Source: Acutalibacteraceae bacterium (GTDB lineage Bacteria > Bacillota_I > Bacilli_A > RFN20 > CAG-449). Taken from it: a stretch of DNA of 64,000 bases. The position numbers and the translations under genes are program-made. The stretch lies in contig CAVDMV010000001.1 in assembly GCA_963610315.1 (NCBI GenBank), forward strand, positions 77,441 to 141,440, read 5' to 3'. This document shows, one piece after another, positions 22,285 to 64,000 of this stretch. Each line of letters opens with the position of its first letter. The first letter of the stretch is position 1. Below the pieces are notes generated by a model that saw only the letters and a list, made by a program, of their open reading frames with translations, had not been told where the DNA came from and made no database searches.

Positions 22285-22455
22285 AAATTTCGTTACCTCC
22301 TATTTTCTATAGACTTAGACTCGCTTTAAAGGTAGATTTTGACATCTTTAAAAAGACCTTTTCAATGCGGTTGAGGCCCTCTATAAGGCGACAACATATA
22401 TAAAATATCAAAAATAAAACATTAATTCAATAAAATATTTCATCTTTTCAATTTT

Positions 22456-41333: not shown

Positions 41334-41424
41334 TGGCGGAGAAACAGAGATTTGAACTCTGGCGGGGCTTTCACCCCCTAATGGTTTTCAAGACCATCCC
41401 CTTCAGCCACTTGGGTATTTCTCC
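41334..41424 (-). tRNA. tRNA-Ser (anticodon UGA)
   Basis: Minus-strand sequence GGAGAAATACCCAAGTGGCTGAAGGGGATGGTCTTGAAAACCATT...GGTTCAAATCT...CTCCGCCA. It has a long variable arm, anticodon loop CUUGAAA, and an encoded CCA. Confidence 0.85.
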
Positions 41425-41437
41425 ATGTTAATTAGTT

Positions 41438-41513
41438 TGGTGGACCCTGCAGGACTTGAACCTGCAACGACCCGTTTATGAGACGGGGGCTCTAACCATT
41501 GAACTAAGGGTCC
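41438..41513 (-). tRNA. tRNA with CAU anticodon, probably tRNA-Ile2 (lysidine-type) by resemblance to B. subtilis tRNA-Ile(CAU)
   Basis: GGACCCTTAGTTCAATGGTTAGAGCCCCCGTCTCATAAACGGG...GGTTCAAGTCC...GGGTCCACCA. G1-C72 is paired, so it is not an initiator. Confidence 0.7.
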
Positions 41514-41520
41514 TTATAAT

Positions 41521-41597
41521 TGGTGGCGGCAGAGGGGGTCGAACCCTCGACCTGCCGGGTATGAGCCGGCCGCTCTAACCAACTGGGCTACACCGCC
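41521..41597 (-). tRNA. elongator tRNA-Met (CAU)
   Basis: GGCGGTGTAGCCCAGTTGGTTAGAGCGGCCGGCTCATACCCGGCAGGTCGAGGGTTCGA...GCCGCCACCA, close to B. subtilis elongator tRNA-Met. Confidence 0.75.
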
Positions 41598-57474: not shown

Positions 57475-58380
57475 ATGGAAAGCGTTACTTTAAAAATAGA
57501 TGAAAATAAACTAAATAAAATGAAAGAATTGTATTCATATTGCGAAGAAAAAACTTCTGCTCCATATGTAGTTTTTCTTGCTAAAATAAGAACAAATATC
57601 ACTTTAACAATCTATGAGTCTAAAAAAGGCATCAAAGCCGTTTTTATGGGAGAAGATGTGATAAGTGAAGCTTCATTATGGGATAAAGAAGCTTTCATCA
57701 ATGAAAAAAAAGAAAAAGTATCTTACTCATGGTTAGATACTTCTAGTCAAATAGGATCAGACGAAGTAGGAACTGGAGATTTTTTTGGTCCAGTGATCGT
57801 TGTTGCTTCTTATATTAAGAAAGATATAATCCCTTATTTAAAAGAATTAGGTGTTAACGATTCAAAGAAACTAACTGATAAAAAGATTCTTGAAATAGTA
57901 CCTAAATTCATCGATAAAGTAATCTTTTCTAAATTAACATGCGATAATAATAAATATAATGAAATGATATCTAAAGGATATAATATGAATTCGATTAAAG
58001 CAGTTCTTCACAATGAAGCTTTAAAGAATGTTTTAAGTAAATCTCACGATTATAATTGTCAAATTTACATCGACCAATTTTGTGATAAAAGCTTATATTA
58101 TCGTTATTTAGAAGGTAAATACGAACCTTTAATCGATCACGTTAATTTTCATACTAAAGGAGAATCCTTCTATCCTTCAGTCGCGGTTAGTTCCTTAATC
58201 GCACGATACTCTTTCTTATTATATATCGAAGAATTAAATAAAAAATACCATATGGAATTTCCTAAAGGAGCTTCTTCTCTCGTAGATGAATTCGCTAAAA
58301 AGTTCAAGGAAACATATGGTATAGATGAATTAAATAAAGTTTGTAAGAAGAACTTTAAAAATTATGAATCATTAAAGTAA
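57475..58380 (+). CDS. rnhC: ribonuclease HIII
   Basis: N-terminal TBP-like domain plus an RNase HII-fold catalytic domain (GSDEVGTGDFFGPV); 301 aa. Confidence 0.85.
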   Translation: MESVTLKIDENKLNKMKELYSYCEEKTSAPYVVFLAKIRTNITLTIYESKKGIKAVFMGEDVISEASLWDKEAFINEKKEKVSYSWLDTSSQIGSDEVGTGDFFGPVIVVASYIKKDIIPYLKELGVNDSKKLTDKKILEIVPKFIDKVIFSKLTCDNNKYNEMISKGYNMNSIKAVLHNEALKNVLSKSHDYNCQIYIDQFCDKSLYYRYLEGKYEPLIDHVNFHTKGESFYPSVAVSSLIARYSFLLYIEELNKKYHMEFPKGASSLVDEFAKKFKETYGIDELNKVCKKNFKNYESLK

Positions 58381-59637
58381 TTCTTGTTTTAAAGTTAAGT
58401 ATTTCGCGTAATATTTATAATGTGATTTAGAAATTTTCGCGATGCAATCATAACCTAAATCACTCTCTTTAAGTTCCACGAGTGCTTCTTCATTTTGTAT
58501 TTTATAAAAATCAGAAGAATTCTCAAATGGAATTAATAAATTTACTTCATAATAAAAATCAGTAAGATAATTATCAATTAAAGAAGCAATATCTTCCATA
58601 TATGAATCATCTTTTAAAGAGACGATAAGTTCATCTTCATCAACAAAAGGTAAATAAGGAGAAGATCTTAAATCGACTTTATTATAAAGATAAATCATCT
58701 TTTTATCTTTTACTCCAATACTTTCTAATGTATCTAAAGTAACTTTGCAGTCTTCATAAACATGGTTAGAGGAACAATCGACAACATGGATTAATAAATC
58801 AGCTTCTTTAATCTCTTCTAAAGTCGATCTAAAAGCCTTAATTAATGGAGTAGGTAAAGAAGAAATAAATCCAACAGTATCAGTTAATAAAAAAGGATAA
58901 TGATTCTTCATTTTGATATATCTAGTCGTCGTATTAAGGGTAGCAAACAAGCGATTTTCTTCTAAAATTGCTTGTTTTTTTTCGTTTTCACCTAAACGGA
59001 TAAAATTGTTCATTAAAGTGGATTTGCCAGCGTTAGTATAACCTACAATCGCGACTACTGGTAAAGAAGATTTTCTTTCTTTACGTTGGTTCTTTCTTAA
59101 AGAGACCATCTTTTTAAGTTCTTCTTCTTTTTCTTTAATTTGTTTCTTAATTAAATATCGTTTTATATTAATTTCTTTTTCACCAGATCCACGGTTTGTT
59201 AGACCCCCGGCGCCACCTGAAGTAACTTGTGAATAATTTTTATTCACATCGATTAAGCGATTAGCCATATATTTTAAATAAGCTACTTCTACTTGTAATT
59301 TAGCTTCTTTTGAAGAAGCACGTAAAGCAAATATTTTTAAAATGACCATACTTCGATCATAGACTTCACAATCTAAGATTTTTGAAATAGTAGATATTTG
59401 TAAAGGACTTAAATCATTATTAAAACAAACTAATTTAATACCTGCGTTATCAATATAAGTTTTTATTTCATATAGAAAACCTCTTCCTACATAACTAGAA
59501 GAATGAGGTTTATCAAGTTGTTGACTAAAGACATAATCAATTTCAATATCTAAAGAAGATAATAAATTAGTAAGTTCTCCTATCGGAGAATTATCTACTT
59601 TATATATAGAAGGATCAATAACTACACACTTTTCCAT
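58372..59637 (-). CDS. hflX: GTPase HflX
   Basis: HflX N-domain and G-domain (GYTNAGKSTL, DTVGF); 421 aa. It overlaps the 3' end of rnhC convergently by 9 nt. Confidence 0.85.
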   Translation of the reverse strand: MEKCVVIDPSIYKVDNSPIGELTNLLSSLDIEIDYVFSQQLDKPHSSSYVGRGFLYEIKTYIDNAGIKLVCFNNDLSPLQISTISKILDCEVYDRSMVILKIFALRASSKEAKLQVEVAYLKYMANRLIDVNKNYSQVTSGGAGGLTNRGSGEKEINIKRYLIKKQIKEKEEELKKMVSLRKNQRKERKSSLPVVAIVGYTNAGKSTLMNNFIRLGENEKKQAILEENRLFATLNTTTRYIKMKNHYPFLLTDTVGFISSLPTPLIKAFRSTLEEIKEADLLIHVVDCSSNHVYEDCKVTLDTLESIGVKDKKMIYLYNKVDLRSSPYLPFVDEDELIVSLKDDSYMEDIASLIDNYLTDFYYEVNLLIPFENSSDFYKIQNEEALVELKESDLGYDCIAKISKSHYKYYAKYLTLKQELL

Positions 59638-59654: not shown

Positions 59655-61238
59655 TTATAATTCTTTAGAAAATTTTTCTAAGAATTCATCATAAGTACAA
59701 TTTCGATCAATAATTTTATTTTCCGATATATATATTATTCTATTCGCGACTGTATTAATTAATTCATGGTCGTGAGAAGTAAATAATAATACACCTTTAT
59801 AATTAATTAAACCTTTGTTTAATGCAGTGATCGATTCTAGATCTAAATGGTTAGTAGGATCATCCATAATGAGAAGATTACCGCTAGTTAACATCATCTT
59901 CGCCATCATACATCTAACTTTTTCTCCTCCAGAAAGAACCGCGCAAGATTTTAAGGCTTCTTCATTAGAGAAAAGCATTCGACCTAGCCAACCACGGATA
60001 TAAGACTCATTTTGATCTTTTGAATAAGGTCTAAGCCAATCAACTAAAGTTAATGAACCATCTTTAAAATAAGCAGAATTATCACTTGGTAAATAAGATT
60101 TAGTAATAGTAATACCAAATTTAAAATCGCCTGAAGTAGGTTCTTCTTCACCATTAAGAATATTAAATAAAGTCGTTAATGCAAGAGAATTTTTACTAAT
60201 AAATGCGACTTTTTCACCTTTTTTAAGGCTAAAAGATAAATTCTTAAATAATCCTTCCTTACTTAAATTATTAACTTCTAAGACATCGTTACCGATTTCT
60301 CTTTCAATTTTAAAATCGATGAATGGATATACTCGACTAGAAGGAACCATTTCTTCAACATTAATTTTTTCAAGTTCTTTCTTTCTAGAAGTTGCTTGTT
60401 TAGATTTAGAAGCATTCGCACTGAAACGAGCGATGAATTCTTGTAATTCTTTAATTCTTTGTTCTTTTTTAGAATTTTGATCTTTTAATTGTCTTTGAAT
60501 TAATTGGCTTGATTCATACCAGAATTCATAGTTACCAACAAACATATTGATTTTACCATAATCAACATCACAAATTCTTGTACATACTTTGTTTAAGAAG
60601 TGACGATCGTGAGAAACAATAATAACCGTGTTAGTGAATGAATATAAGAAAGATTCTAACCAAGAAGTCGCGATTGCATCTAAGTTATTAGTAGGTTCAT
60701 CGAGAAGTAAAATATCAGGATTACCAAATAAAGCTTGAGCAAGAAGAACTTTAACTTTCTCTTTTGCATCAATATCTTTCATTAATAAATCATGCTTATC
60801 TTCACTTATACCTAAGTTAGAAAGCATTGTTCTTGCATTTGAATCAGCTTCCCAACCATCTAATTCCATAAACTCATTTTCTAGTTCTGCCGCGCGAATA
60901 CCATCTTCTTCACTAAAATCAGTTTTGGCATATAATTCATCTTTTTGCTTCATGATTTCAATTAAACGAGGATGACCTTGAATGACCGCGTCAACTAAAG
61001 TGAATTCATCATAAGCATTTTGATTTTGTTTTAAAATGGACATTCTTTCGTGTTCCGTTAAAGTTACTGATCCTGAGGTAGGTTCAAGTTCACCAGAGAT
61101 GATTTTTAAAAATGTGGATTTTCCAGCTCCGTTAGCCCCGATAATTCCATAACAATTATCTTTTTGGAAATTGATATTAACATCTTTAAATAATACTCTT
61201 CCGCCGAACTGCATTGATACGTTACTTACTTCTAGCAT
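59655..61238 (-). CDS. ABC-F family ATPase (EttA/Uup-like, two NBDs, no TM) with a degenerate second ATP site
   Basis: NBD1 has Walker A GANGAGKST and Walker B LLLDEPTNNLD, but its signature is degenerate (DIDAKE instead of LSGGE). NBD2 has Walker A SKNSLALTT (no Lys), Walker B LLIMDDPTNHLD (Glu->Asp) and a canonical signature LSGGEK. There is an arm insertion and a PtIM-like linker of about 60 aa. Confidence 0.85.
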   Translation of the reverse strand: MLEVSNVSMQFGGRVLFKDVNINFQKDNCYGIIGANGAGKSTFLKIISGELEPTSGSVTLTEHERMSILKQNQNAYDEFTLVDAVIQGHPRLIEIMKQKDELYAKTDFSEEDGIRAAELENEFMELDGWEADSNARTMLSNLGISEDKHDLLMKDIDAKEKVKVLLAQALFGNPDILLLDEPTNNLDAIATSWLESFLYSFTNTVIIVSHDRHFLNKVCTRICDVDYGKINMFVGNYEFWYESSQLIQRQLKDQNSKKEQRIKELQEFIARFSANASKSKQATSRKKELEKINVEEMVPSSRVYPFIDFKIEREIGNDVLEVNNLSKEGLFKNLSFSLKKGEKVAFISKNSLALTTLFNILNGEEEPTSGDFKFGITITKSYLPSDNSAYFKDGSLTLVDWLRPYSKDQNESYIRGWLGRMLFSNEEALKSCAVLSGGEKVRCMMAKMMLTSGNLLIMDDPTNHLDLESITALNKGLINYKGVLLFTSHDHELINTVANRIIYISENKIIDRNCTYDEFLEKFSKEL

Positions 61239-62121
61239 CTAATTTCTCCTTTATATATCGTTTTGTTTCTTCGTTAATACCTTCCTTTTTTATATAAGAA
61301 GGAAATTTATGTGTCTTAGGATATGAAGAAACATGAAATATCCCACGAGGTGTAATATAAGGTTTATTAACTGAAGCAAATAAACCTTCTAAATAAATTA
61401 AACTCGCTTTATCTACATTAAAAGTAAATAAGGTAAATAAATGATGTTTAAGAATACTAAATTTATTTTTTAAACCAGTTTTATTTGCAGTTATAATATT
61501 AGTTTTAGTTACGCCTGGATGAAGTAAAATATAACTAATACCATTATTTTTTAAACTAAGTTCATAAACAAATCTACTTAAACAATATTTTGAATAAGCA
61601 TACATCTTATTTCTTTTTAATGTATCACTTTCTTTTAAACTCACCTTTTTTGCATTCTTCGCGGTTAAAGACGTGACAAATAATAATCTAGTCTTGTTCG
61701 AGACAAAATAATCTTCTAAAGAATAATATAATTTATACACTCCTAGATAATTAGTGCCTAAAGTTAATTCAAAATTATTGTCAGTTTTATAATCTTCTTT
61801 AGAAGAATATACTCCCGCGTTAAAAACAAAATAATCAATATGAACAAATTTTTCTTTTAAAGATAAACTAAATTCATCGATAGAACGAAAACTTGCTTGG
61901 TCTAATTTTAAAATCGTTATTTTCGAATAAGGAAATTCATCTTGAAGTTCTTTTAAAATCATTTTTCCTTTATCTAGATTTCTTATTCCTAAAATGACGT
62001 TCGCGCCTTTTTTTAAAACTAACTTACAAAAGGCTAGTCCTAGTCCAGAACTAGCTCCTGTAATAACGATAAATTTACCAACTAACGAAGGATATTTATC
62101 TAAATAAGCATCAATATTCAT
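61222..62121 (-). CDS. short-chain dehydrogenase/reductase (SDR)
   Basis: ITGASSGLGLA cofactor motif and a YAYSK catalytic pair; 299 aa. Confidence 0.85.
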   Translation of the reverse strand: MNIDAYLDKYPSLVGKFIVITGASSGLGLAFCKLVLKKGANVILGIRNLDKGKMILKELQDEFPYSKITILKLDQASFRSIDEFSLSLKEKFVHIDYFVFNAGVYSSKEDYKTDNNFELTLGTNYLGVYKLYYSLEDYFVSNKTRLLFVTSLTAKNAKKVSLKESDTLKRNKMYAYSKYCLSRFVYELSLKNNGISYILLHPGVTKTNIITANKTGLKNKFSILKHHLFTLFTFNVDKASLIYLEGLFASVNKPYITPRGIFHVSSYPKTHKFPSYIKKEGINEETKRYIKEKLDARSK

Positions 62122-63092
62122 TAAATTAAATCTTCTAAATCTTTAATTAAAGAAGGTAATTCATCCATTGATTTAAGTGTCGCACCTGATGCGTTTTTAT
62201 GTCCACCTCCGCGATAAGAAGAACAAACTCCAGAAATATCAATTTCTTTAGATCTAACTGATACTCTAAATTCTTGTTTTTCACTTATTTCAGTAACACA
62301 GAACCAAATAGGTACATTACGGATATTAGACATTAAAGAAAGATGTTCTTTACCTCTTTCATTATCAATTCCTAAAGCATCTAAATCTTCTTGCATTAAG
62401 GTATAATAAGCCACCCCTTTAGGAGTAAATGTCATATTATTTAAAACATATTTTTGGAATTTTAATGATTCAACATCTTTTTCATAAAGTGGTAAATATA
62501 CTTCTTTATTTGGTTTTAAATTACTGCTTAATAACATACCTGCAATATCAAATGTTTCTTTAGATGTTGAAGGGAACATGAATCGACCTGAATCAGTTAC
62601 AATCCCAGTAAAGAAATATTTACTAGCATTCTTACTTAATGGATATTTCTTCGAATTAGAATAGCAGAAATCGGCGACAAGTTCTGCGCAAGCAGCAATT
62701 TCATTCGCGACAATATTTAAATCTCCATAAGGTTCAATGTTTGGATGGTGATCAAATTTAATTTTATATGTTGCTTTTTTATATCGATCATCAGAAATTC
62801 TTTTTGTATCTCCAGTATCAACAATAATCGCTAGAAATGGTTTTTCAAACCAAGAATCATCAACTTTTTCCATAAATGGGAAGAGTTTACCAGAATAAGA
62901 TGAAGAATCTTCACCAACATAATGAACTTCTTTTGTTACAAAATTATCTCGTAACCAAGTAACTAAACCCATTTGAGTTCCAAAAGCATCTCCATCAGGT
63001 CTTTGATGACGGAAAATACAAATTCGATCAAATTCTTTAATCTTTTTTAGGGCTAATTTGAATTCTTTTTTATATATTTTATCGTAGTACAT
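62121..63092 (-). CDS. nrnA: DHH/DHHA1 bifunctional oligoribonuclease / pAp phosphatase NrnA
   Basis: RHQRPDGDAFGT and DTGDT DHH motifs, with DHHA1 GGGHKNASG; 323 aa. Confidence 0.85.
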   Translation of the reverse strand: MYYDKIYKKEFKLALKKIKEFDRICIFRHQRPDGDAFGTQMGLVTWLRDNFVTKEVHYVGEDSSSYSGKLFPFMEKVDDSWFEKPFLAIIVDTGDTKRISDDRYKKATYKIKFDHHPNIEPYGDLNIVANEIAACAELVADFCYSNSKKYPLSKNASKYFFTGIVTDSGRFMFPSTSKETFDIAGMLLSSNLKPNKEVYLPLYEKDVESLKFQKYVLNNMTFTPKGVAYYTLMQEDLDALGIDNERGKEHLSLMSNIRNVPIWFCVTEISEKQEFRVSVRSKEIDISGVCSSYRGGGHKNASGATLKSMDELPSLIKDLEDLI

Positions 63093-63101
63093 AATTCTCC
63101 T

Positions 63102-64000
63102 TTATTTTATACTTTTTAATACTTTTTCTAATTCTTCAATGAAGATATTGACTTCATCTAAGGAATTTTCATATGAGAAAGAAACTCTTATTGCATTAGT
63201 CGCTCTTTCGAGAGGATACCCCATTGCTTCAATGACGTAACTATATGGTTTCTTTTTACTTGAACAAGCAGATTTAGTAGAAACATAGATTTCTTTTAAA
63301 GATAAACCTTCTTGAACTACACTCGCTTTTTTATTGACGCTGAAATTAATGATAAATGGTGAACCATTCTTTGGTGAATTGATATTTACATTATCTAGAT
63401 GAGATAATTTTTCAAACATATAATCATGAATTTCTTTAACTTTGTTATATCTTTCGAACATATTTTCATATGCGATACGTAATGTTTTCGCTAGACTAAC
63501 TTCATAAGGAAAATTATTCGTTCCTGAACGGAAAGAAAATTCTTGTCCTCCTCCATCAATTAAAGGAACTAGATCAATATTTTTCTTTTTTAAAAGGAGT
63601 CCACTTCCTTTAAAACCATTAATTTTATGGGCTGACATCGAAACTAAATCAACGTCTTTAAATGAAACATTTACTTTTCCAATTGCTTGGGTTGCATCAG
63701 AATGGAAGATAACTTTAGGATAATCTTTTAATATTTTTGCGATATTACTAATATCATTAATTGATCCTACTTCATTATTAATCGCCATAATAGAAACAAG
63801 AATTGTATCGTCTCTTAAGGCTTTTTTTAATGTATCTAGTTCAACTACACCATCTTTATTTACGTCCAAATAAGTAACATCAAATCCATATAAATCATGC
63901 ATTTGTTTATAAACATTTAAAACAGAAGGATGTTCAACTTTAGTTGTAATAATGTGATTACCTCTATTTTTATATTTTAAGCATGTTCCTTTAATGGCTA
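63102..64000 (-). CDS. cysteine desulfurase (class V aminotransferase, NifS/IscS-like); N-terminus lies beyond the window end
   Basis: PLP-lysine motif SMSAHKINGFKGSG. The in-frame upstream translation IITTKVEHPSVLNVYKQ continues to position 64000 without a stop. Confidence 0.85.
   Translation of the reverse strand, partial: AIKGTCLKYKNRGNHIITTKVEHPSVLNVYKQMHDLYGFDVTYLDVNKDGVVELDTLKKALRDDTILVSIMAINNEVGSINDISNIAKILKDYPKVIFHSDATQAIGKVNVSFKDVDLVSMSAHKINGFKGSGLLLKKKNIDLVPLIDGGGQEFSFRSGTNNFPYEVSLAKTLRIAYENMFERYNKVKEIHDYMFEKLSHLDNVNINSPKNGSPFIINFSVNKKASVVQEGLSLKEIYVSTKSACSSKKKPYSYVIEAMGYPLERATNAIRVSFSYENSLDEVNIFIEELEKVLKSIK

Follow-up and report, generated by a model that had tools for sequence, protein, structure and literature searches.

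A YkpA/YbiT-type ABC-F protein with one consensus and one degenerate ATP site from an Acutalibacteraceae bacterium, and the conservation of this asymmetry among its homologues

The DNA analysed here is a stretch of 64,000 nucleotides (hereafter the window) from an Acutalibacteraceae bacterium, corresponding to positions 77,441 to 141,440 of contig CAVDMV010000001.1. On its minus strand, at 59655..61238, it carries an intact open reading frame (ORF) encoding a ykpA/ybiT-type ABC-F protein of 527 residues, which comprises a first nucleotide-binding domain (NBD1) with an arm, a linker (PtIM, the P-site tRNA interaction motif) and a second nucleotide-binding domain (NBD2). One of its two composite ATP sites, site 1, is of consensus type; the other, site 2, is degenerate, and the same asymmetry is found throughout its non-proteobacterial homologues. 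With a probability of roughly 0.8, we consider the protein to be a housekeeping orthologue of the YkpA/YbiT type in which site 1 is the sole catalytic site and site 2 is non-hydrolytic and probably nucleotide-free.

The family assignment is supported at the level of both sequence and fold. The top NCBIfam match was NF011646 (‘ABC-F family ATPase’, YbiT-type), with 621 bits (E = 1.5e-186) over residues 1-522 of 527, and the EttA and Uup models were far weaker and far under their own cutoffs. Pfam returned ABC_tran in two stretches together with ABC_tran_Xtn, and the best sequence match in the PDB was Escherichia coli YbiT (9njf_Y; E = 5.5e-148, residues 1-521), with YheS as runner-up (3.8e-70). 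We also modelled the protein using AlphaFold2 (AF2) with 40 homologues in the input, which gave a mean pLDDT of 87.7 and values of 93-96 in the NBD2 core; the best fold match of this model was again ribosome-bound YbiT, 9njf_Y (E = 4.8e-50). Identity amounts to 61% over the full length with the syntenically placed YkpA of Bacillus velezensis and to 45% overall with E. coli YbiT. The single chain contains two tandem NBDs, no transmembrane (TM) segment (maximum Kyte-Doolittle value 1.17 in a 19-residue window) and no C-terminal extension. The ABC-F identity proposed by the first-pass annotation is therefore borne out by the NCBIfam, Pfam and PDB matches and, on sequence grounds, the ORF is an orthologue within the YbiT/YkpA subfamily and an ordinary member of a widespread family. 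An appropriate annotation for the gene is YbiT/YkpA-type ABC-F translation factor.

The two structural hallmarks of an ABC-F protein are both present. The PtIM inter-domain linker (aa 241-310; 60309..60518, minus strand) has the tip RFSANASKSKQATSR, is covered in part by ABC_tran_Xtn (PF12848, E = 1.2e-20, aa 223-297) and is modelled with helices at aa 237-290. It aligns without gaps to the linkers of E. coli YbiT and B. velezensis YkpA, and the tip, RFSANASKS(K/R)QATSR, is the same in all three. The arm subdomain, an insertion in NBD1 (aa 90-141; 60816..60971, minus strand), is modelled as helices 90-104, 110-125 and 128-141 and aligns with the YbiT arm. Length class, arm and PtIM tip are thus as in Bacillus YkpA, and domain order and PtIM as in E. 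coli YbiT.

The motifs of the two ATP sites, all on the minus strand and with positions verified by translation, differ sharply. Site 1 is formed by a consensus NBD1 Walker A, GANGAGKST (aa 34-42; 61113..61139), the NBD1 Walker B with its catalytic Glu, ILLLDE (aa 176-181, with E181; 60696..60713), and the NBD2 signature LSGGE (aa 435-439; 59922..59936), confirming the intact site that had been recognised from the sequence initially. At site 2, the NBD2 Walker A position reads SKNSLALTT (aa 348-356; 60171..60197), with the substitutions Gly1 to Ser, Gly4 to Ser, Gly6 to Ala and Lys7 to Leu, in a region modelled as strand-loop-helix with pLDDT 93-96. The NBD1 signature position, which would complete site 2, holds IDAKE in place of LSGGE (aa 156-160; 60759..60773) and aligns with VAPGW of E. 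coli YbiT. In the NBD2 Walker B, LLIMDD (aa 455-460; 59859..59876), Asp459 is kept and the catalytic Glu is replaced by Asp460.

The first-pass annotation had described every element of site 2 as degenerate. This holds for the Walker A, the catalytic Glu and the NBD1 signature, but site 2 still has Walker B Asp459, the D-loop NHLD and the H-loop His489. On the other hand, its list of losses can be extended by the Q-loop Gln, which is replaced by Ser385 (60084..60086), and by the A-loop aromatic residue, which is missing owing to a deletion of 3-4 residues relative to E. coli YbiT (Phe in ‘KGFD’). The protein therefore lacks the two consensus composite ATP sites on which the standard EQ2 trapping mutant is based. 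It resembles a classical degenerate ABC site in that only one site has substitutions of the catalytic Glu and the partner signature (D460 and IDAKE), and departs from it in that the Walker A is not intact.

To place these motif states in the context of the family, we counted them in 210 non-proteobacterial homologues, and in a set of 73 sequences made non-redundant at 85% identity. The Walker A pattern GxxGxGK[ST][ST] occurs in 210/210 homologues in NBD1 and in 0/210 in NBD2; conversely, the xSGG signature is present in NBD2 in 210/210 and in NBD1 in 1/210. The Walker B D-E pair is found in all 210 in NBD1 and in 47 of them in NBD2, and the Q-loop Gln likewise in all 210 versus 53, having been lost from NBD2 in 157/210. 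Of the NBD2 P-loop residues, Gly4 and Gly6 each persist in 2/210 and Lys7 in 7/210, and the A-loop aromatic is deleted or replaced by an aliphatic residue. The NBD2 H-loop His, by comparison, is kept in 204/210. In the non-redundant set, the NBD2 signature S-G-G-E is invariant (73/73) and the clade consensus at the NBD1 signature position is L-D-x-K-x. Column entropy is close to 0 bits across the site-1 motifs, including the NBD1 Walker A, about 2 bits in the NBD2 P-loop and 3.1 bits at the NBD2 Q-loop position. Where the catalytic Glu of site 2 would stand, 26 of the 73 sequences have E, 25 have D, 14 Q, 5 R, 2 N and 1 T.

Close relatives share the pattern without exception. Among the 120 nearest proteins in a collection of 5.8 billion proteins (99-69% identity), all 120 lack a consensus NBD2 Walker A, all carry a non-LSGG signature in NBD1 and all keep site 1. 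The same combination of kept site 1 and degenerate site 2 was seen at 80/80 loci from species-representative genomes (95-59% identity), which span Acholeplasmatales, Anaeroplasmataceae, Oscillospiraceae, Ruminococcus flavefaciens isolates, Christensenella and Anaerovoracaceae. One database protein, P0002 (826 aa, from a single contig), joins a UvrD_C-type helicase domain (PF13361) to a YkpA-type ABC-F with the NBD2 P-loop VGSDVVAKTT; fused gene calls or a chimeric contig are its probable origin.

Homologues from named organisms were retrieved by tblastn of PLSDB, and 8/10 of the named taxa compared share a degenerate NBD2 Walker A, the exceptions being Proteus and E. coli (PDB sequence). Lys7 is absent from the corresponding position in B. 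velezensis YkpA (TGRNELAVTT), Bacteroides ovatus (LSRNPRAMTA), Lactobacillus kefiranofaciens (LSRNALATTA) and Peptoclostridium (VGENEIVNTT), and present in Listeria monocytogenes (VGDDEVAKTV), Staphylococcus aureus (IGDSEIAKTT), Fusobacterium vincentii (LAKNDLVKTT) and Mesomycoplasma (FAEDDLVKTK in M. hyopneumoniae, FGEDDLVKTK in M. hyorhinis). A Peptostreptococcales representative combines GENEIVNTT with LLLDQPT in NBD2. Proteus mirabilis and E. coli have the consensus LGTNGVGKST including Lys7; in the proteobacterial homologues, however, it is the NBD1 signature that is altered, to VAPGW. Several PLSDB records are of chromosome size (Listeria 2.9 Mb, Bacillus 5.5 Mb, Proteus 4.1 Mb, Fusobacterium 2.1 Mb; among them NZ_CP030101.1, NZ_CP093325.1, NZ_OL790811.1 and NZ_CP084075.1), and matches there imply no plasmid carriage.

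When 1.84 billion cluster representatives were searched exhaustively, at a 50%-identity level that is too coarse for a fine clade boundary, the degenerate site 2 was restricted to YkpA-type clusters; in other ABC-F subfamilies (28-45% identity), the NBD2 Walker A is of consensus type and the NBD1 signature of LSGG type. Two consensus ATP sites are thus typical of ABC-F proteins without being universal, and the whole YkpA-type clade departs from this arrangement together with the protein described here. The initial premise that ABC-F proteins, YbiT included, normally have two consensus sites fails for E. coli YbiT itself, given its VAPGW signature in NBD1.

Purifying selection acts on NBD2 as it does on the rest of the protein. 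Against a 95%-identical orthologue, here L001, dN/dS was 0.065 for NBD1, 0.054 for the PtIM linker and 0.070 for NBD2, and mean column entropy over the 73 sequences was 1.02 bits for NBD1, 0.86 for the PtIM linker (the lowest value) and 1.25 for NBD2. The low dN/dS and entropy of NBD2 indicate that the domain is maintained and that variation is tolerated in its own catalytic residues alone. A sequencing or assembly error, or a decaying pseudo-domain, can be dismissed outright, since the motifs are identical in L001 and in a 99%-identical protein from an independent protein cluster (P0001), the trait recurs in 210/210 homologues, the NBD2 dN/dS is 0.070 and the ORF is intact; the earlier argument that the asymmetry is real stands. 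The comparison with orthologues that had been proposed as a check gave the degenerate site 2 as common to the relatives, with a canonical NBD2 Walker A in none of the 210. The 120 proteins, the 80 loci and the 8/10 named taxa also rule out a trait private to the genome or genus. Judged from these sequences, the degenerate site 2 is a genuine, conserved and selected family trait outside the Proteobacteria.

Comparison with the characterised members of the subfamily shows how far site 2 has drifted. In B. velezensis YkpA it is also degenerate, with a P-loop lacking Lys (GRNELAVTT), LGGSE as NBD1 signature, the Q-loop Gln replaced by Lys (FPKDN) and a non-aromatic A-loop. Bacillus YkpA nevertheless keeps the NBD2 catalytic Glu (LILDEPT), which is Asp in the protein from the window, and its LGGSE is closer to consensus than IDAKE. 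Site 2 of E. coli YbiT is likewise non-consensus, but its defect is the mirror image: it is confined to the signature side (VAPGW), whereas the NBD2 Walker A (GTNGVGKST), catalytic Glu, Q-loop Gln and A-loop Phe that YbiT keeps have all been lost here, so that site 2 has been destroyed on its Walker A side too. The motifs of the E. coli YbiT sequence used in these comparisons match both the PDB alignment and the Proteus mirabilis sequence from the database. In the EQ2 structures of E. coli YbiT, ATP is seen at both sites (bioRxiv 10.1101/2023.06.15.543498).

What is known of the two model proteins gives this architecture a likely function. E. coli YbiT relieves ribosome destabilisation by poly-acidic sequences and stalling on poly-basic ones, in vitro and in vivo, and needs its linker helix to do so (PMC11162784); loss of YkpA in B. 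subtilis causes mild stalling on K10, R10 and E10 reporters (PMC11381351). Cryo-EM places EQ2-YbiT of E. coli in the ribosomal E site, and its site 2, with the ‘strongly degenerate’ VAPGW, takes up non-hydrolytic geometries there, being, depending on the class, either near-canonical or else open and ‘overwhelmingly likely’ to be inactive (bioRxiv 10.1101/2023.06.15.543498).

By analogy we infer ribosome binding, a similar substrate class and a nucleotide-free site 2 for the protein from the window. ATP bound at site 1, made up of the NBD1 Walker A and B, E181 and the NBD2 LSGGE, would close both NBDs and thereby allow binding to the E site, as predicted by homology. The conserved PtIM would then reach the P-site tRNA and the peptidyl-transferase centre (PTC), where the factor may help ribosomes past difficult nascent sequences (charged stretches, for example), and ATP hydrolysis driven by E181 would let it leave the ribosome. 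Site 1 would be the only catalytic site clade-wide and site 2 a non-catalytic, probably empty interface, given the loss of its A-loop residue, P-loop Gly and Lys, Q-loop Gln, catalytic Glu and partner signature. The natural occurrence of Gln (14/73), Arg (5/73), Asp (25/73) and Asn (2/73) at the site-2 Glu position shows that hydrolysis is not needed there; as read from the alignment, Gln, Arg and Asn at this position amount to built-in inactivating mutations. NBD2 itself would be retained for two reasons: its LSGGE closes site 1 and, by extension from the YbiT structures, the domain probably makes up one half of the body docking in the E site.

Some observations weigh against a catalytically single and nucleotide-free arrangement in a YkpA/YbiT-type factor. 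The score of 621 bits against the equivalog model NF011646 is below the curated NCBI cutoff of 762 bits. Clostridioides difficile CD2068, which is reported to be 67% identical to YkpA (PMC8144104) and on that report is expected to belong, with its motifs, to the YkpA-type clade, was assigned the role of a drug-efflux ATPase (PMC5577244). Finally, several site-2 residues are still conserved (Asn350 in 61/73, Thr355 in 69/73, Asp459 in 65/73 and His489 in 67/73) and the P-loop Lys is kept in Listeria, S. aureus, Fusobacterium and Mesomycoplasma, on account of which site 2 could have residual affinity for a nucleotide or another ligand.

This last point underlies the only serious alternative, namely that site 2 binds a nucleotide or other ligand without hydrolysing it, as a permanent ‘glue’ or regulatory site, which would make the protein a two-nucleotide, one-hydrolysis ABC-F comparable to CFTR, TM287/288 and MRP1. 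The conserved Asn350, Thr355, Asp459 and His489, the D-loop, the Lys of some lineages and a P-loop region modelled with high confidence as an intact strand-loop-helix are all compatible with it, and the degenerate sites of ABC exporters do hold ATP with normal affinity (PMC7756269). As in the present protein, the non-consensus residues of CFTR, TAP1/2, TM287/288, MRP1 and Pdr5 are confined to one composite site, with the catalytic Glu and the partner signature replaced. These asymmetric transporters are, however, membrane proteins whose degenerate site generally has an intact glycine-rich P-loop and binds ATP tightly; the most extreme of them, yeast Pdr5, has Cys instead of the Walker A Lys (PMC7756269). 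Here, in a soluble and predicted ribosome factor, the phosphate-binding loop itself has been dismantled (Gly4 2/210, Gly6 2/210, Lys7 7/210), unlike in classical degenerate sites, the A-loop has a deletion or an aliphatic residue in place of the aromatic one, 157/210 homologues have lost the Q-loop Gln, and a variability of some 2 bits per position in the loop speaks against a specific ligand pocket. We therefore regard a nucleotide-holding site 2 as unlikely.

The findings on CD2068 bring up a different role, that of the energising subunit of a multidrug efflux system. Its expression led to drug resistance and to a vanadate-sensitive, drug-stimulated ATPase activity in E. coli vesicles, and a cd2068 knock-out sensitised C. 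difficile (PMC5577244). Yet the ORF in the window lacks any TM segment, no gene for a membrane protein lies in its cluster, the full ABC-F architecture is present with a conserved PtIM, the closest solved homologue occupies the ribosomal E site and the gene is flanked by hflX and by genes related to RNA or translation, all of which makes such a role very improbable. Still less probable is an antibiotic-resistance (ARE) ABC-F that shields the ribosome from PTC- or tunnel-binding drugs, which would draw on general ABC-F family membership, weak matches to the ARE models and the fact that hflX paralogues can also confer resistance. The scores against the ARE models all stay far below the respective cutoffs (score/cutoff in bits: Vga 262/725, Msr 220/680, Lsa 166/750, OptrA 232/1450 and Sal 194/725); the PtIM has the short YbiT length without an extension; and the start codon overlaps the upstream SDR gene, leaving no room for a leader or attenuator region.

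The preferred reading of a YkpA/YbiT-type translation factor sits in a gene neighbourhood of five minus-strand genes, in the order iscS-type, nrnA-like, SDR, ABC-F and hflX. An IscS/NifS-type cysteine desulfurase gene (63102..64000) is followed by a gene for an NrnA-like DHH/DHHA1 phosphoesterase (62121..63092; NF053633 at 224 bits, below the cutoff of 350) and one for an SDR-family oxidoreductase (61222..62121), whose 3' end overlaps the start of the ABC-F gene by 17 nt (61222-61238). The ribosome-binding site of the ABC-F gene, AAAGGAG, sits within the SDR coding sequence, which together with the overlap suggests translational coupling. The hflX gene for a ribosome-associated GTPase (58372..59637; TIGR03156, 336.5 bits for a cutoff of 216.75) starts 17 nt downstream of the ABC-F stop and has a ribosome-binding site of its own, GAAAGGAG, the two sites both being AAGGAG-type. 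On the plus strand, rnhC converges on hflX, their 3' ends overlapping by 9 nt (58372-58380). The first-pass annotation had correctly named the SDR, NrnA-like and IscS-type genes as co-directional neighbours and had omitted hflX. An apparent N-terminal truncation of the cysteine desulfurase (266 aa in the ORF list) was rejected as an artefact of the window edge, since the reading frame continues to 64000.

This arrangement is conserved only at close range. The order SDR-ABCF-hflX, with an identical SDR-ABCF overlap, is kept at L001 (95% identity), L091 (74%) and L093 (72%); the nrnA-like gene is present at the first two and absent from L093, so that the full cluster occurs only at L001 and L091. 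None of 79 loci at 59-66% identity has any of the window's neighbour genes beside the homologue, and the Bacillus context, sipT-ykpA-ykpB-ampS-ykpC-mreBH in B. velezensis, is unrelated to SDR-ABCF-hflX. A deep functional link to the IscS, NrnA and SDR neighbours is thus unsupported, the clustering being confined to close relatives, and the pairing of two ribosome-rescue-type NTPases, ABC-F and HflX, is suggestive but shallow. The L001 contig, CAVJGK010000064.1, has the gene order of the window, iscS-nrnA-SDR-ABCF-hflX-rnhC. Its label reads ‘Lachnospiraceae bacterium’, and those of the next relatives read Bacillales, Bacilli, Erysipelotrichaceae and Acholeplasmatales; the label or binning of the L001 contig is probably wrong. 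The organism of the window looks like an uncultured, low-GC (about 30%) member of the Bacillota from the gut, of Bacilli/Erysipelotrichales-like type and with genetic code 11.

Within the 64-kb window, no second, consensus ABC-F paralogue was found. An Rfam scan of the window gave no leader, attenuator or riboswitch upstream of the ABC-F gene, and terminator-like matches inside the cluster fall within coding sequence. The only Rfam matches in the window were a ribosomal protein L21 leader (22307-22382, minus strand; RF00559, scoring 38.5 bits where the gathering threshold is 36) and three clustered tRNA genes (41337-41597, minus strand).

The protein is less singular than it first appeared. 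It had been presented as special and, to the annotator's knowledge, as a type uncharacterised in bacteria, but its P-loop state recurs in B. velezensis YkpA and in the proteins of L. monocytogenes, S. aureus, Bacteroides ovatus, Fusobacterium, Mesomycoplasma and Clostridia, the genetics of B. subtilis YkpA have been published (PMC11381351) and the strong degeneracy and possible inactivity of YbiT site 2 have been described (bioRxiv 10.1101/2023.06.15.543498). B. subtilis YkpA(EQ2) has been used as a two-site ATPase-dead mutant, and CD2068 has been docked with inhibitors in ‘the ATP binding pocket’ (PMC13622287, PMC5577244, PMC11928863); term searches of these three papers found no mention of Walker motifs or of a degenerate site in YkpA or CD2068. 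Nor did the literature searched, which did not extend to Quentin et al. 1999, contain a mention of the NBD2 Walker A loss in the YkpA-type clade. That early B. subtilis inventory is said, where it is cited, to have assumed YkpA to be ‘not fully functional’. With a degenerate site 2 already known in YbiT, the Walker A loss is a modest point at the level of the family and no discovery at the locus, and for the window itself it has little significance, the gene being a routine orthologue.

The family-level consequences are broader. The YkpA-type clade covers Bacillota, Mycoplasmatota, Fusobacteriota and Bacteroidota, including proteins from the B. subtilis group, S. aureus and L. monocytogenes, and the housekeeping ABC-F of many Gram-positive models and pathogens has only one consensus ATP site. 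We tentatively suggest, at somewhat less than even odds, that the clade is a natural class of single-nucleotide ABC-F translation factors, in which site 2 has been turned into a nucleotide-free protein-protein latch and one ATP per cycle may drive both binding to and release from the ribosome. If this is true, then, together with the mirror-image degeneration of YbiT, the subfamily as a whole could dispense with site-2 catalysis. One E-to-Q substitution in NBD1 should suffice to trap a YkpA-type factor on ribosomes, existing YkpA ‘EQ2’ constructs would effectively be EQ1, and models of ATP cost and cooperativity derived from EttA may not hold for these proteins. Equally, the comparison cautions against labelling ‘degenerate’ ABC-F genes as defective in an automated or naive way, an assumption that the early B. 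subtilis inventory is reported to have made for YkpA.

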